64,000 nt of DNA from Lophium mytilinum (GCA_010093605.1 MU004190.1:1571599-1635598), one strand, 5' to 3'. Positions 28,527-52,722 are shown, numbered from the stretch's first letter. Program-made: numbers and translations. Notes: generated from the sequence alone by a model not told the origin.

Positions 28527-28895
28527 GGTTGGGCGTGATCAGGTTATGCCTTGGACCATTGCATTTGGCAGAAAGCTTCGAGTGATGAGAGATGCGGCGA
28601 AACTTTTGAGCAACACAAGCCCTCAGCTTTTCTTACACTGGTCTAGCACCACTTGGGGTTCTGTAGCACATCGTAAGAATTTGGAAAAGGGCAGTTTCAA
28701 CAAGTCTGGAAGCTTTGCGGGCCACCTCTAACGGCGTCAGACTGAGTGAGTCTCCGAGGTGGTGAGCGAGTCCACGAAGCAATGCGTAGGCGTAGAGTTG
28801 TGCAATAACTCCTCGCTGCGTGGCGGAGATTTCATATCGGTGTTATGTGACGTGACGTGACGGGCAAATACAGTGAAGTAATTTTTGGTGGGTGA

Positions 28896-28924
28896 CACGT
28901 GCGCAAATTTTAAGGGTATATATA
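28896..28924 (+). promoter_or_regulatory. CACGTG plus TATA box upstream of ncRNA copy A
   Basis: cacgtg at 28896-28901 and tatatata at 28917-28924, about 31 nt before the start of the terminal stem; equivalent elements precede copies B and C. Confidence 0.6.
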
Positions 28925-28947
28925 CTAAAGTATTTTGAACAGAATCT

Positions 28948-29147
28948 AAAGAAACTCGACTCACAGTCCTGTGCCGGGCGATGACATAGCACACTCACTC
29001 AGTGTGTTAGAGCTCACGCTACTCTAAACCGCACATCCAAGGACATCGTGCCGGGCGCTGACATAGCACACCCAATCATCGCAATGGCGCGGTGTGTTAG
29101 AGCTCACGCTATTCCAAACCGCACAGAGACGAGTTTCTCTTTTTTTT
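28948..29147 (+). ncRNA. Candidate Pol III structured ncRNA, copy A (terminal stem plus two conserved bulged hairpins, 28971-29034 and 29048-29124)
   Basis: Motif gtgccgggcg(a/c)tgacatagcacac-loop-gtgtgttagagctcacgcta(c/t)tc(t/c)aaaccgcac occurs twice; 5' agaaactcgactc pairs with 3' gagacgagtttct; T8 at 29140-29147. Confidence 0.75.
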
Positions 29148-29175
29148 GCATTCTACCTCTCTTATTAGAGGACCT

Positions 29176-29186
29176 GGTTCGACTCG
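29176..29186 (+). promoter_or_regulatory. Pol III B-box downstream of ncRNA copy A
   Basis: GGTTCGACTCG about 29 nt after the T-run, with no tRNA cloverleaf around it. Confidence 0.7.
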
Positions 29187-29496
29187 CGGAGTGACCATAA
29201 ATACATGAAATTTCTACCTTTTTACCTTTTAACCTCGCTTATTTATGCCTTTTACCCTTGAGGCAAGATGATCACCTTAATAGAAGGGCTACGTGCGCTT
29301 CGTACAATCCTCATGTCTGCTTCACATACCAATTCGGTACGGCACGAGCTGACAGTCCAATAATCTAGAGAGCTAGAGGATATCACAACTTCTTGACTAG
29401 AAACTACGATCTGCTCCAAAGCCTTGGAGTCGGTCTGTGTTGCAGGTGTTGGCCTTTAAAGGTGCTTTCGAAGAATTTCACGCGCTGGAAAATGAA

Positions 29497-29715
29497 GGCA
29501 CAGATCATATAAGTCTGGGCACACGGACTGATTACCGTTCAGCTCCAATTTGCTCACTTGACACCACCGAGAGGAGTAGCCCAGCCAGTTCAAAGGCGGT
29601 AAGCTGCATAGCAGTCTGATTTGCACTGTATGGAACTTGAAGTGGCGGCTAGAGATTTATAAGGAGTAGCCCAAACGGTGGCGTTGCATTGTGCCAGACT
29701 TCTGGCCTGTGACTG
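29497..29715. mobile_element. MITE copy (reverse orientation relative to 33524-33734)
   Basis: ataagtctgggcacacggac ... ttgctcacttgacaccac ... gtgccagacttctggcctgtgactg|ta. Confidence 0.7.
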
Positions 29716-34571: not shown

Positions 34572-35384
34572 ATGAACTTCAGCGACAACCCCACTACAAA
34601 TCACGTCCCCCCTCCTGGCTCCACCTCATCAACACCAAACTTGCCTCCGTCTCCTCACGACGACGACACGCCGACAACCACCATGAACGAACCACCTCCT
34701 ACCGGCCAGCTCCCTCTCCCAGAGTTCTCTCTGCCGTTTCGCCCTCACCGCCCTGGAAGCCCTCCTCCGGCCACCGCGCAGGCCTCCCAGCTGTTCTCCC
34801 TCCTAATCCACCCTAACGCAGCACTTCGCAATCCAGCCTACATTGACGTCAGCACGCGGAATGAGGCCACACTACTCGCTCCAACACTCGCGCCTGCAGC
34901 TGCAGACAATAACTCGAAGAACGCCACGCAGTGGGTCCAGTACGGCGGAATGTGGCACCAAGCTGGCTCATTTGCGGTGGTTGTCTATGTCGCCGACCCA
35001 AACGTCGTTACTCCCGTGGAAGAAGATGGTGTGTTGGATGCGGTGGTCGGTATCACGGAGAGAGGTGCTGTGGCGCAGGCAATAAATCTACAACAACAGT
35101 CCCGGAATATAGCGGCGAAGGAGACCGAGAAGAATCTTGAGCAGCCGAAAAAGCTTTCGAAAAGGGAGAAGAGAGCCCAGAAGCGACGACAAGCCGAGGC
35201 AGGGGGGAAGGACATTGGGATGAAGCAACCAAGAAAACGGGGTTCGAGACGGGACGGGAGAGCCAAAAAGCGACAACAGAGCGGGGCGGAGGGAAGGGAC
35301 CTTGAGATGATGAGCCATGCAGGTAACGTCTACCTATCTGAACCCTCGGGGAAGATGCTAAAGAAATATGAGGTCGTATCATAG
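34572..35384 (+). CDS. Orphan protein (Pro-rich N-terminus, K/R-rich C-terminus); start and 3' end uncertain
   Basis: 270-aa ORF with coding-like composition; possible donor gtaacg near 35322. Confidence 0.5.
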   Translation: MNFSDNPTTNHVPPPGSTSSTPNLPPSPHDDDTPTTTMNEPPPTGQLPLPEFSLPFRPHRPGSPPPATAQASQLFSLLIHPNAALRNPAYIDVSTRNEATLLAPTLAPAAADNNSKNATQWVQYGGMWHQAGSFAVVVYVADPNVVTPVEEDGVLDAVVGITERGAVAQAINLQQQSRNIAAKETEKNLEQPKKLSKREKRAQKRRQAEAGGKDIGMKQPRKRGSRRDGRAKKRQQSGAEGRDLEMMSHAGNVYLSEPSGKMLKKYEVVS

Positions 35385-35477: not shown

Positions 35478-35880
35478 GTCTTGCTCATTCAACACCACTG
35501 CAAGGGGTAGCCTGGCTCTTAAGTAGCCAACCAGTCAAAAGACAGCCTGATTTATACTCTTTGAAACTTAGTATAGCTCTTAGATCTTCAAGAACTCATA
35601 GCGTACTCCAAGCAGTGGCGAACTAGTATGCCTAGGTTTCTGACCTGTCAATGACGATCAGACGAGAAGTCTAGGCACCCGTATCTAGTATTGATTGCCT
35701 CTAGTGTTGCTCACTTAACGCCACTGTGAAGGGTAGCCTGGCTGCTAAGCAGTCGTGCAGTCAAGACGCAGCCTAATTCGCACTGCTTGAAACTAGCACC
35801 GCCCTTGATCTTCGAGACCCTATGAGGGTATTCCAAGCAGTTGCGAACCATTGTGAAAAGGCTTATGCCTTGCAGTAGTG
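35478..35880. mobile_element. Two tandem decayed MITE copies (reverse orientation)
   Basis: ttgctca...ccactg...gggtagcctggct...gtcaa...ccaagcagt-gcgaac occurs twice. Confidence 0.7.
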
Positions 35881-37472: not shown

Positions 37473-39986
37473 ATGGCGCAACCCGAGAAGAAACGAGGGC
37501 TCCCGCCCAAGATTGCCGCGATGAAAGCGCGGAAGCGACAAAAGGTCGAGAACCCCACCACCTCTCCCTCTGAAACATCGAAACCCGCGAAGCAAGGGCG
37601 GAAGGTGCGCCTCGACGAGCTGAAATGGACGGAGGTGGAGATGCCGGATCGGATGGATGATTTCGAGGGCTTCTTTGGCTTGGAGGAGATTGACGACGTA
37701 AAGATTGTGAGAGAGGATAATGGGAGGATGTACTTTGAGGCGTTGGATGAAAAAATAATCAAGAGTGGAGCGGCCAATGGCAAAGCCAAAGCCAGCGGAG
37801 CAGAAGCTGGCGATATCGATGATACCGGAGATGATGACGCGGACGATACAGAGTGGTCTGGGTTTGGGGATGACGATGTCGAGCCGGTAAAGCCAGTCGA
37901 GCCTCCGGCGAAGAAATCGAACTTAAAGGAGAAGAAGGATACTAAGAAGGCCCAGAAGGAGCAGAAAGATGCGAAGAAAAAGGAACAGAACGATACCAAG
38001 CCTAGTAAAAAGGACATCAAGAAGAAAGAAAAACAGACAAAAGCATCCATACCGTCTCTGTCAAGTGATGCTACGGGGTTTGATGCCTTGGACGCGCTTA
38101 ACGAAGGTGACGAGGAGATGGACGTTTCTGCATGGGAAGAACTGGAACTTTTACCCCAGACCTTGTCGTCCCTTTCGAAGCTTGGATTCGGCAACCCTAC
38201 ACCAATTCAATCCTCCGCAATACCGGAAATTTTGGCCGGCAACGATGTGATTGGAAAAGCGTCCACGGGGTCTGGAAAGACTCTAGCATTTGGTATCCCA
38301 ATACTCGAGAGTTATCTAGCAAGACCGAAGAAGACTGCAAACGATACGAAAACATCCGAGCAGAAGCCGCCGCTTGCCTTGATCTTGTCGCCGACTCGAG
38401 AATTGGCACACCAAATCACCGATCATCTCAATGCACTTTTCAAGGGAGGGAATTTTGAAGGCCCGCTGATCGCAACTCTGACGGGGGGTCTTTCGGAGCA
38501 GAAGCAGCAACGTCTACTAGCGCATGCAGATGTCGTAATTGGTACACCTGGACGATTGTGGCAAGCTATGAGAGAGGGTCACGGTCTTGTGAAATTATTC
38601 AAGAAAATTCGATTCTTGGTCATTGATGAAGCCGATCGTCTCCTCTCCCAAGGTAACTTCAAAGAGGTCGAAGAGATTCTCAACGTGCTCGAACGCGAAG
38701 ACGATGAAGCAGTTTCCGACGCTGAGTCCGACACCTCCTCGGCCCCACCTCCTACAATGACCACCCCTCCACCTCGCCAGACTCTCGTCTTCTCCGCGAC
38801 CTTCAACAAAGACCTGCAACAAAAACTCTCTGGTCGCGCCCGCAAGTCAACTACCTCAAATCTTGCCACCCCCCAACAGTCCATGGAATACCTCCTCACC
38901 CGCCTTCGCTTCCATGCCTCTCCATCTGGCAAGCCCAAGTTCATCGACGTTGACCCATCCTCCCAACTCGCTCGCAAAATTCGCGAAGGTCTCGTCGAGT
39001 GTGGTGCGCTAGAAAAGGATCTCTACGCCTACGCCCTCCTCCTCCATCACCCGAATGTCCGAACGCTTCTCTTCACAAACTCAATATCCGCTGTCCGCCG
39101 CCTAGCACCATTTCTGCAAAATCTGGGCCTGCCGGCGCTGCCACTACACAGCCAAATGGCCCAGAAAGCACGGATGAGATCAATCGAGAAGTTCAAGTCG
39201 CAGAAGGGCGCGATTCTCGTAGCGACGGATGTGGCAGCGAGAGGACTTGATATTCCGGCGGTGGCTTTGGTGCTACATTACCATCTACCGCGAGCTGCGA
39301 ACACGTACATACATCGCGCGGGCCGTACGGCACGCGGAGATGCTAGTGGAAGCAGCATCCTTCTCTGTGCGCCCGATGAGGTAGCGGGTGTGAGACGCTT
39401 AATCGCAAATGTGCATCAGAGATCGACGTTCGCAACGGAACAACACGATAGCGAGAACTCCGATGACAGTTCCAGTAACGACGAAGATGAACAAGCGACT
39501 GAGAAGACGGTTACCAAGAAGAAGGATTTCAATAAAAAGAAAGGAATCCACTTCATTCGCACCATAGACATCGACCGCCGTCTAGTAGCCCGCATCAAGC
39601 CCCGCGCAGATCTCTCCAAGAAAATCACTGATGTCCAAGCTGCTAAAGAGAAGAAATCAAGCGCTGATGAGTTCCTCCGCCAAGCCGCTGAAGATCTTGG
39701 CGTTGACTACGACTCCGAGGAGCTCGATGCCCAAGGCTCTGCTGGAAGGATGAATAGAGGTGCGGGCCGTAAGAGGCGCGAGAGAGAAGCACGCGGTATC
39801 AGCAAGGACGAGATGGGCGCCTTAAGAGCCGAGTTGAAAGACCTTCTGAGCCGGAGGGTCAATGTGGGTGTCAGCGAGAAGTATCTGACTAGCGGCGGGG
39901 TGGATATCGATGCTTTATTGAAAGGTGATGGCAAAGGTATCTTCCTAGGTCAGGTAGCTGGGGTAGGATTGTTTGACGACGAATAA
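37473..39986 (+). CDS. MAK5: DEAD-box RNA helicase, Mak5/DDX24-like (60S biogenesis)
   Basis: Q motif GFGNPTPIQ, ASTGSGKT, SPTRELA, TPGRL, DEAD, SAT, ARGLDIP, HRAGRTAR; N-terminal FFGLEEID typical of Mak5. Confidence 0.9.
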   Translation: MAQPEKKRGLPPKIAAMKARKRQKVENPTTSPSETSKPAKQGRKVRLDELKWTEVEMPDRMDDFEGFFGLEEIDDVKIVREDNGRMYFEALDEKIIKSGAANGKAKASGAEAGDIDDTGDDDADDTEWSGFGDDDVEPVKPVEPPAKKSNLKEKKDTKKAQKEQKDAKKKEQNDTKPSKKDIKKKEKQTKASIPSLSSDATGFDALDALNEGDEEMDVSAWEELELLPQTLSSLSKLGFGNPTPIQSSAIPEILAGNDVIGKASTGSGKTLAFGIPILESYLARPKKTANDTKTSEQKPPLALILSPTRELAHQITDHLNALFKGGNFEGPLIATLTGGLSEQKQQRLLAHADVVIGTPGRLWQAMREGHGLVKLFKKIRFLVIDEADRLLSQGNFKEVEEILNVLEREDDEAVSDAESDTSSAPPPTMTTPPPRQTLVFSATFNKDLQQKLSGRARKSTTSNLATPQQSMEYLLTRLRFHASPSGKPKFIDVDPSSQLARKIREGLVECGALEKDLYAYALLLHHPNVRTLLFTNSISAVRRLAPFLQNLGLPALPLHSQMAQKARMRSIEKFKSQKGAILVATDVAARGLDIPAVALVLHYHLPRAANTYIHRAGRTARGDASGSSILLCAPDEVAGVRRLIANVHQRSTFATEQHDSENSDDSSSNDEDEQATEKTVTKKKDFNKKKGIHFIRTIDIDRRLVARIKPRADLSKKITDVQAAKEKKSSADEFLRQAAEDLGVDYDSEELDAQGSAGRMNRGAGRKRREREARGISKDEMGALRAELKDLLSRRVNVGVSEKYLTSGGVDIDALLKGDGKGIFLGQVAGVGLFDDE

Positions 39987-40106: not shown

Positions 40107-40346
40107 CAGTACAAGACCACAAGTCTAAGCACATGGATTTTTCACTGCTTAGCATCGATGTTGCTCGCTTGACACCACAACACCACTGTAGTGGGTAGCC
40201 TGGTTGCTTAGGTACCGGCCGGTTAGTCAAGAGGCATTCTAATCTACACTACTTCAAACTCGACGTCACCGTTGAATCTTCGAAATCCTATGGGATCACC
40301 TCTAGTAGTGGCGAGCCAGTGTGTCTAGACTTATAGCTCATCAATA
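40107..40346. mobile_element. MITE copy
   Basis: TA|CAGTacaagaccacaagtctaagcac ... ccactgtagtgggtagcctgg ... gtgtctagacttatagc. Confidence 0.7.
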
Positions 40347-50839: not shown

Positions 50840-51060
50840 CTGGTCTGGGCGTACCGACTTACTACCTTTCCGCCCTAAGTTTGCTCAATTGATACCACTG
50901 TGAGGAGTAACCCGGCTAGCTCGTAGATAATGATTCAAGTAGTAGTCCGACTTGCACTGCTTGGACCTTGACATCCCACCCAAATGAGTAAAAGCTTGCG
51001 GGGTACCCTAAGCAGTGGTTTTCTAAACGGGTGTGTACAGCCTTCTAGCTTGTCAGTTTA
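50840..51060. mobile_element. Decayed MITE copy
   Basis: gtctgggcgtac, ttgctcaattgataccactgtgaggagtaacc, gggtaccctaagcagtgg. Confidence 0.6.
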
Positions 51061-52209
51061 CTTTGGTTGCTTGCTTGATCGCGATAGCTGAAAAACTTTT
51101 GTCACACATAGTTGTAGAAGCTGCAGAGAGAAGGGGTTATAATGCGGAGGCAGGGAGGTCATGGTTGGCTCGCTACCCCCGGGGACCCATGGGGCGCCTT
51201 GCTATTCCAAGTCTGGGCCAAAACCCTATCTTCACGTCCCAGCATCACCCATCGCCTGCGTTCAACAACGACGGCGTGTCCAAGCAAGGAGAGTCAAAAC
51301 TGATGATATTGTACACTGTGGTCCTAATCTGACATCTTTGTCTTAGAAAGTGGCCGGAGTCGAGGTTACTTCAGGGTATTCGAGAGCCGCAACATGAAGA
51401 AAAACAGCTTCAGCTACTCCTGCCTGCGCTGTGGTAATGACTTCACGTTAGGCTATCCAGAGGTCCAAGTCATACTACTCAGCTTCTTCGACCTATAGTT
51501 GAGAATTATGACACCTCCAGCCGCTCCCGCCAGTGCTGAGATAATTGAGTTACGGTCGGTCGATGGCAAAGTCACGGTCTTCGGACTTTTGTATCTGTAA
51601 TTGAAAAGAAGAACGGCTTAGACCGCTCCTCCCAGCGTTCTGGTGATGATTACATGGTATGCTGATGTGCAAATCAACAAAGTACTCCATCTTCGCGGTC
51701 AATATGTCTAATCATCAATCCCCACCTCGCTTCGCAGCACTGGGAGGAGTACCCTAGCTAGGATTTGTCTATTAAGTCGAAAGATGGCTCGTTTTCCATT
51801 GCTTGGGGTTTTTCATCGTACCTGGAGTTTCCAAAAGCCTATGCTCAGGCTGCTCTTTGCAGTCTGGATGCCGCTGTTAGGAGTGCGCCAGCTCGAGAAT
51901 TATAGCCACATTATGCATCAAATCTTAAAGCATTAGATCTCAAAGAAAACATACGTGAAGGGCTTGGTCGCGATAAGAGCATTCAAGGTCCTAAATGCCG
52001 CTTGCTGAGGCAGCCATGCGAGCTGTTTATCATCCGGGGAATCGCCGCATGAGCTTGACAGATGAAGGTTGTATTACTATTTGGCTGTGGGCACACATGA
52101 CGTGATGTGCGCATCTCTGATCGGGCGGGCTCGGCACGTGCGTTAAGTAAAGCGCAGGTGCGCAACCGTTTTTTGAGGTACATATTTTGAAATATTCTAG
52201 AGGTATATC

Positions 52210-52416
52210 AAAAGTTGCGAACCGTGTTCTGTGCCGGGCGATGACATAGCACACTCAAGCAGTGTGTTAAAGCTCACGCTACTCCAAACCGCACATCCAA
52301 GGGCATTGCAGTACCGGGCGCTGACACAGCACACTCAATCATAGCTTGCCACGGCTCAGTGTGTTGAAGCTCACGCTACTCCAAACCGTACAACGCTTAA
52401 GGCGACCAACTTTTTT
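52210..52416 (+). ncRNA. Candidate Pol III structured ncRNA, copy B (hairpins 52231-52294 and 52311-52391)
   Basis: Same motif twice; terminal stem aaaagttg/caactttt; T6 at 52411-52416; tacatatt at 52179. Confidence 0.75.
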
Positions 52417-52445
52417 GCACCTTGGAGACCCTCTTTGGAGACCCT

Positions 52446-52456
52446 GGTTCGAATCG
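52446..52456 (+). promoter_or_regulatory. Pol III B-box downstream of ncRNA copy B
   Basis: GGTTCGAATCG about 30 nt after the T-run. Confidence 0.7.
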
Positions 52457-52722
52457 TAGAGCGGTTGAATCTTTTTGCATTCCCAACTTTTTTCTTATCG
52501 CAATTAGCTCGAAGCTTAGAATGTTCACTTTCATCAAGCTCGCTGATTTGCTGCGGTCTGAGCTTTGATGCATCCAAAAAGACGTTGTACTCGAACTGCA
52601 TCGGCATAAACCCCAACTACCCATCCTCCAGCCATCGAAACAACCTCCCCACCTTACGCCCACCACATACCGCACCCACCTCCGCTCCATCTACGCAATC
52701 GCGCTTTTTGCACTCAAACCAA

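Follow-up and report, generated by a model that had tools for sequence, protein, structure and literature searches.

Three paralogous fungal RNA genes with a predicted SNR6-like Pol III promoter and an extragenic downstream B box

Three paralogous genes (A, B and C) for a structured RNA that has no name were found in the 64-kb window (the whole stretch of DNA that was analysed), and, judged from sequence, RNA polymerase III (Pol III) probably transcribes them from a hybrid promoter of the SNR6 type. That they are Pol III genes making use of a downstream B box is likewise probable, and assignment of the promoter as an SNR6-like variant, here placed on an unnamed RNA family, is supported by the arrangement of its predicted elements. 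All three genes lie in intergenic DNA within 32 kb, and their predicted RNAs, about 195-210 nt in size, extend from predicted starts at 28948 to 29147 on the + strand (gene A), 52210 to 52416 on the + strand (gene B), and 60559 to 60345 on the - strand (gene C). In 3/3 genes the same order of elements was observed, consisting of CACGTG, a TATA-like box, 30-31 nt, a YAAAG start, a terminal stem, two related hairpin modules of ~65-85 nt, a T6-T8 run, 19-28 nt, and GGTTCGAnnCG. The initial annotation of this DNA had described a layout of CACGTG, TATA, start, T run and GGTTCGAnnCG, and every element that it named was found where it had been placed in all three loci; the layout itself is confirmed.

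The TATA-like boxes read TATATAT in gene A (28917-28923, +), TACATAT in gene B (52179-52185, +), and TATAAAT in gene C (60589-60583, -), and lie 31, 31 and 30 nt before the respective predicted starts, counted from the box's first T up to the first A in the common YAAAG with which the terminal stem opens. The density of TAYAWAW in the window is 0.0003 per nt per strand. A short tatttt/tattct motif, described earlier between the TATA box and the start, proved to be real, and reads TATTTTG at -17 in gene A (28931-28937, +) and at -16 in gene C (60575-60569, -), and ATATTCT at -18 in gene B (52192-52198, +), where a further TATTTTG at -27 overlaps the TATA box.

Upstream of the TATA boxes, CACGTG is found as an E-box at -52 in gene A (28896-28901, +), at -75 in gene B (52135-52140, +), and at -62 in gene C (60621-60616, -, within CCACGTGA), its distance to the start thus varying among genes. 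The gene A site aligns with a CAGGTG in gene B (52155-52160, +), and CACGTG is frequent in the window as a whole (21 sites vs 13.2 expected). The hexamer ACGTGA is likewise common to all three upstream flanks, with spacing that is not conserved, and might be a second upstream factor site. In gene A, two copies of it are contained in GTGACGTGACGTGACG (28847-28862, +, about -100 to -86). In gene B, an ACGTGA-containing element was seen further upstream (ATGACGTGATG, 52098-52107), and gene C has only CCACGTGA at -62 and a distant GACGTGAG (60790-60770 region).

On the downstream side, the 3' strand of the terminal stem is directly followed by the T6-T8 run, which is T8 in gene A (29140-29147, +), T6 in gene B (52411-52416, +), and T4, G, T6 in gene C (60355-60352 and 60350-60345, -), in a window where runs of at least six Ts are rare (0.2 per kb per strand). 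The terminal stem's 3' strand continues into the T run, and the fold of the RNA would therefore by itself set the 3' end at this place, which would leave the B box extragenic. The B-box matches are GGTTCGACTCG in gene A (29176-29186, +), GGTTCGAATCG in gene B (52446-52456, +), and GGTTCGAACCG in gene C (60325-60315, -). These lie downstream of the predicted starts by 228, 236 and 234 nt, and between the first T run's final T and their first G there are 28, 29 and 19 nt, respectively. The pattern GGTTCGANNCG has four matches in 64 kb, vs 0.42 expected, three of them being these loci and the fourth, at 35241, lying inside an ORF (34572-35384). The B block consensus is GGTTCGANNCC-like, and the three matches end in G, not in the C of that consensus. 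The spacer between terminator and B box holds a short hairpin in gene A (CCTCT/AGAGG, 29156-29171, +) and in gene C (CCTCCTGGGAGG, CCTC...GAGG, 60341-60330, -), which in gene B is replaced by a tandem direct repeat of TTGGAGACCCT (52422-52432 and 52435-52445, together spanning 52422-52445, +). The distance between B box and start in gene B is kept despite this duplication in the spacer.

Comparison of the loci by BLAST (+/-1.5 kb around each start) gave an alignment confined to about -40 to +190, and no similarity was detected in these flanks outside the gene and the named motifs. Five hexamers were common to the three 120-nt upstream flanks (ACGTGA, CACGTG, TTTTTG, TATTTT and ATTTTG) and three to the 120-nt downstream flanks (GGTTCG, GTTCGA and CTTTTT); in a null of random triplets of 120-nt window segments (5000 trials), the mean number shared was 0.11, with P(>=3) = 0.003. 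Since these are three paralogues in one window, the conservation is partly due to shared descent. Within a spacer that cannot be aligned, GGTTCGA and the C and G downstream of it are invariant and held at 228-236 nt from the start, which points to selection on the B box in place.

The block that carries the B box resembles a tRNA gene's 3' half in decay, of which the putative TFIIIC site alone would have been retained. With the B box taken as tRNA positions 52-62 (inferred numbering, counted from G53), it falls within a T-arm in which 3 (A), 2 (B) and 4 (C) of 5 stem pairs can form on reading of the sequence. A second T run follows, being T5 in gene A (29219-29223, +), T5 in gene B (52472-52476, +), and T6, C, T11 in gene C (60301-60284, -), and it starts 22 (A), 5 (B) and 3 nt (C) after the inferred tRNA position 73. 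ARAGORN predicted 0 tRNA genes in the window, and a search of the three loci against Rfam at E<=10 matched no tRNA.

This resemblance admits a rather unlikely alternative, in which the block is a dead tRNA remnant, or a stand-alone TFIIIC site of the ETC/boundary type, that was copied along with the RNA gene and does not drive it, the TATA box being used alone. The decayed T-arm would fit such an origin, as would the T run 5 nt (B) or 3 nt (C) after the expected tRNA 3' end, and the short hairpin ahead of the B box, which stands where a variable or anticodon arm would be. What argues for a B box in use is that the rest of the presumed tRNA has decayed past detection by ARAGORN and Rfam, yet GGTTCGA with its C and G has stayed invariant, and that its distance to the start has been held constant to within a few nucleotides.

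Improbable, too, is a reading of the loci as Pol II genes of the snRNA/snoRNA type, with TATA and CACGTG forming a Pol II promoter, the T run kept for pairing to the 5' AAAG, the 3' end produced by processing, and the B-box block being unrelated or a relic. A TATA box ~30 nt upstream of the start is also usual for Pol II in filamentous fungi, and would fit this reading. The same can be said of CACGTG, a site for a Pol II-type activator or a general regulatory factor according to excerpts of PMC2897762. In genes B and C the tail does pair with the 5' end through its first Us, so that T richness there is partly structural; however, at most 2-3 of the 8 Ts of gene A are able to pair, the T runs of 8, 6 and 4+6 exceed what pairing needs, and the genes themselves are free of internal T runs longer than 3 nt (longest run 3, 2 and 3 nt in A, B and C). 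This reading would also leave a 9/9 B-box core, rare in the window, standing at the same place in 3/3 genes, and neither an Sm site nor a box C/D or H/ACA arrangement fits on reading of the sequence, nor was any Rfam family matched at gathering threshold or with a convincing E-value.

Returning to the preferred Pol III reading, the genes were compared with the A-box consensus TRGCNNAGTGG, to which their best matches cover 7-8 of 9 positions and are located at +138 (A), +143 (B) and +49 (C), with none near +20. Matches of this quality occur in the window at a background of 2.6 per kb per strand, which upholds the earlier remark that no clear A-box could be identified. Since no A box is significant, TFIIIC would act mainly through the B box.

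The RNA itself is predicted to consist of a terminal stem that closes two modules. In gene A (+), the terminal stem is formed by 28950-28958 with 29130-29138, and encloses module 1 (28971-29034) and module 2 (29048-29124); in gene B (+), by 52210-52217 with 52407-52414, enclosing module 1 (52231-52294) and module 2 (52311-52391); and in gene C (-), by 60559-60549 with 60363-60353, enclosing module 1 (60543-60472) and module 2 (60449-60372). The terminal stems diverge in sequence and remain complementary, over 9 bp in A (AGAAACUCG/CGAGUUUCU), 8 bp in B (AAAAGUUG/CAACUUUU), and 11 bp in C (AAAGAAAUUGG/CCAAUUUCUUU), and a helix around module 1 also covaries (GUCCU/AGGAC in A, GUUCU/AGGGC in B, GGAUCC/GGAUCC in C). 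A covariance model of the module matched the six modules at 86-104 bits and nothing else in the window, the next best score being 10.9 bits. Each module has a closing stem, GUGC-(C)-GG with CC-GCAC, followed by a one-sided 9-nt loop, UAYWCYAAA, a second stem, GCG-(A/C)-UGA with UCA-CGC, then a small internal loop and a variable apical stem.

Across the six modules, 127/127 cells were paired, with double changes in 4/22 pairs, and the covariation score was 0.121 vs 0.052 +/- 0.016 in shuffles (0/500 reaching 0.121), with 0 double changes in slid-alignment controls. A single G-U pair, invariant in 6/6 modules, would read C-A on the opposite strand, and this pair, together with G-U pairs in the gene B helix around module 1, fixes the transcribed strand. 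Whole-gene folding compared with shuffles gave z = -3.9 for gene A, +0.35 for gene B, which folds no better than shuffled sequence, and -2.7 for gene C; since these thermodynamic scores are uneven, covariation is the stronger argument for structure. The modules are short and irregular, with the longest uninterrupted stems at about 9-11 bp. Since a longer apical stem and a conserved CAAUCAU loop are common to module 2 of 3/3 genes, the internal duplication is older than the gene duplications. One bulged module base (28984 and 29061 in A, 52244 and 52324 in B, 60530 and 60436 in C) is A in one module and C in the other of each gene, giving the forms GCGAUGAC and GCGCUGAC; the order of the two is reversed in gene C, and with n=3 chance could produce such a pattern (1 in 8).

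An alternative fold, in which RNAalifold paired the closing stems between modules in the three full genes, was disfavoured. The GUAC/GUAC double change in module 2 of gene B gives an A-C mismatch in that fold and is compatible only with pairing within the module, and since fold energies for within-module vs between-module pairing were equal or better (-65.1 vs -63.0 kcal/mol in A, -52.9 vs -51.6 kcal/mol in B, -64.2 vs -64.0 kcal/mol in C), within-module pairing is favoured. Several candidate identities for the module were rejected. As a box C/D motif, its GAUGA and CUGA stand at the same position in different modules, with their order reversed in gene C; an H/ACA fold was ruled out by the one-sided internal loop; for a K-turn, the required GA is AA in both modules of gene B, and the register clashes with the covarying stem; and a tRNA D-arm would compete with that stem. 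An ACAGAGA following module 2 of gene A was taken as coincidence, since it is absent from genes B and C.

At the level of sequence, the SNR6-like Pol III reading put forward in the initial annotation is supported, the A block excepted, with a TATA box at ~-30, a T-rich element, a T6-T8 terminator and a downstream B box all present, the last of these being the main argument for Pol III, and a course of transcription can be proposed from it. TFIIIC would bind a high-affinity B box 19-28 nt past the terminator and 228-236 nt downstream of the start, and, reaching probably over a gene body of nucleosome size and with no strong A box to rely on, would help to bring TFIIIB to the TATA box at -30/-31. 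TFIIIB placement may be aided by the T-rich element that closely follows this box. Pol III would then initiate at the A of the conserved YAAAG and terminate in the T6-T8 run. Excerpts of PMC2897762 identify CACGTG as the site of Cbf1, depleted of nucleosomes in many yeasts in vivo; the upstream CACGTG, as a Cbf1/bHLH-type site, probably excludes nucleosomes from the promoter or modulates it, and that it helps the promoter to stay open can reasonably be guessed, though no more than guessed. The 5' AAAG end of the RNA is predicted to pair with bases inside the 3' U tail and immediately ahead of it, the terminal stem thereby closing two near-identical irregular hairpin modules, whose invariant internal loops are the likely places where one partner, in two copies, would bind. 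The B-box block would be a decayed tRNA-gene 3' half with its own T run, and the family would have spread via local DNA duplication.

An extragenic downstream B block is known from budding-yeast U6 genes. In SNR6 of S. cerevisiae, as covered by excerpts of two sources (PMC9136082, PMC5855946), a TATA box at -30, a T stretch between TATA and start (given as T7 in PMC9136082), and an internal A block are combined with a B block that lies downstream of the terminator and at about 200 bp from the A block; a nucleosome is thought to bridge these two elements, and the TFIIIC-bound B block is essential in chromatin. The present genes share with SNR6 a TATA box at ~-30, a T-rich element, a T-run terminator, and an extragenic downstream B block a little more than 200 bp from the gene 5' end; the start-to-B box geometry closely resembles that of SNR6. 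They differ in that the transcript fills ~200 bp and the B box stands 19-28 nt past the terminator, against a terminator-to-B block distance of about 120 bp in SNR6, and also in that the RNA is not U6, no A block is recognisable, a CACGTG upstream is common to the loci, and there are three copies.

TATA-assisted type-2 Pol III genes include the tRNA, 5S and U6 genes of S. pombe and the 5S genes of N. crassa. In the rodent 4.5SH and 4.5SI genes, a TATA-like box at -31/-24 accompanies A and B boxes (PMC10137851). As in such genes, a TATA-like box ~30 nt upstream would here act together with TFIIIC-type elements; but whereas those genes have internal A and B boxes, the present ones have an extragenic B box and no evident A box. 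The RPR1 and SNR52 leaders are examples of a tRNA-type promoter borrowed by Pol III genes that do not encode tRNA. PMC2566860 describes dicistronic tRNA-5S genes of Yarrowia, in which a non-tRNA Pol III RNA likewise uses a tRNA-type promoter. The present loci resemble these three cases in their candidate dependence on a tRNA-like promoter sequence that is absent from the mature RNA, whereas the tRNA-like part lies upstream and is co-transcribed there, and is a remnant located after the terminator here.

A parallel with Neurospora milRNA genes had been drawn as well, and holds as an analogy only, the host being a Dothideomycete and the hairpins short irregular modules. Both concern a fungal non-housekeeping RNA that is a proposed Pol III product. 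The milR-1 locus is described, in the excerpt of PMC3547838, as having TATA-like elements without A and B boxes; here a B box is present, and irregular stems of 9-10 bp replace the long hairpin, differences that set the two apart by description.

As to how the copies spread, the earlier proposal of DNA duplication rather than retroposition appears reasonable, with TATA and CACGTG conserved upstream of the transcript and the copies lying close together. A retrocopy could not bring along TATA, the T-rich element and CACGTG, all upstream of the transcript, or the B box, which the terminator precedes, and local DNA duplication followed by decay of all but the gene and its signals would be the simplest account. 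No A-rich tails or flanking direct repeats were seen at the three loci. Retroposed mobile repeats that have a type-2 promoter inside them, whether SINE-like and derived from a tRNA or of another kind, would also yield a short, multi-copy, Pol III-like RNA, and weak A-box-like strings do occur in the 3' strand of the variable hairpin (TTGCTCAGTTGG in module 1 of gene C, CGGCTCAGTGTG in module 2 of gene B, TGGCGCGGTGTG in module 2 of gene A), but this is highly improbable given A-box matches only at background level, conserved elements on both sides of the transcript with the B box past the terminator, the lack of A-rich tail, flanking direct repeats or cloverleaf, and terminal stems that differ between copies yet are complementary, which is the pattern of genes selected for structure.

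The host was placed by means of an ORF at 37473-39986 (+) for a DDX24/MAK5-type DEAD-box helicase, which matches a protein of Mytilinidion resinicola at 95% identity across 74% of the query; since this is its best named relative and the other named matches are from Dothideomycetes, the host is placed in the Dothideomycetes, near Mytilinidion.

For the identity of the RNA, Rfam 15 gave 0 matches at gathering threshold over the whole window, and at E<=10 on the three loci a single match, to a Pseudomonas sRNA model (13 bits, E 1.4), which is meaningless, and none to U6. Scanning of metagenomes with a gapped module pattern returned 9 loci, all chance matches in GC-rich, bacterial-looking contigs without a second motif or B box, and prokaryote genome and viral collections gave 0 matches. 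A literature search on 12-13-nt strings of the module retrieved unrelated papers only, and no description of a fungal RNA of similar kind was found in the literature searched, which is not proof of its being unpublished. Since the module loops are near-invariant among the paralogues while the stems vary, our guess is that the RNA may be a stable RNP scaffold presenting two identical binding modules. A fuller proposal, which we hold tentatively and regard as possible, is that of an undescribed family of Pol III non-coding RNAs of Dothideomycete fungi, in which a terminal stem closes two conserved modules, the RNA serves as scaffold or decoy for two copies of a partner, and the B block was captured from a tRNA 3' half.

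On that proposal, the promoter would provide a natural second case of the SNR6 type, one that is also plausible as an evolutionary intermediate, and the constant ~230 bp from start to B box would imply a nucleosome over the gene body. If the Pol III reading is true, these genes would form a second, unrelated multi-copy RNA family with SNR6 geometry. The layout could then be seen as a general solution for Pol III genes whose constrained RNA cannot hold a B box. The three genes would serve as three natural replicates for the nucleosome-bridging model of B block distance. There would also be a hint at promoter origin from a decaying neighbouring tRNA gene, and a structured RNA with clear covariation and no Rfam family would be added to a very small list of fungal Pol III transcripts. 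Beyond what the initial annotation contained, the second T run after the B box, the block resembling a tRNA 3' half, and the Dothideomycete host are new.

A separate short repeat family was also observed in the window; it has no Rfam match, and could be a MITE/SINE-like element, another small RNA, or a regulatory motif. Two copies of ~130 nt (29513-29640, +, and 50843-50971, +) are 73% identical (E 1e-14), and a ~45-nt core (TTGCTCACTTGACACCACTGTnAGGAGTAGCCC-like) recurs at least 7 times on both strands, with further copies of this core at 32754-32717, 27281-27241 and 49613-49569 on the - strand, and at 35707-35738 and 40123-40178 on the + strand.
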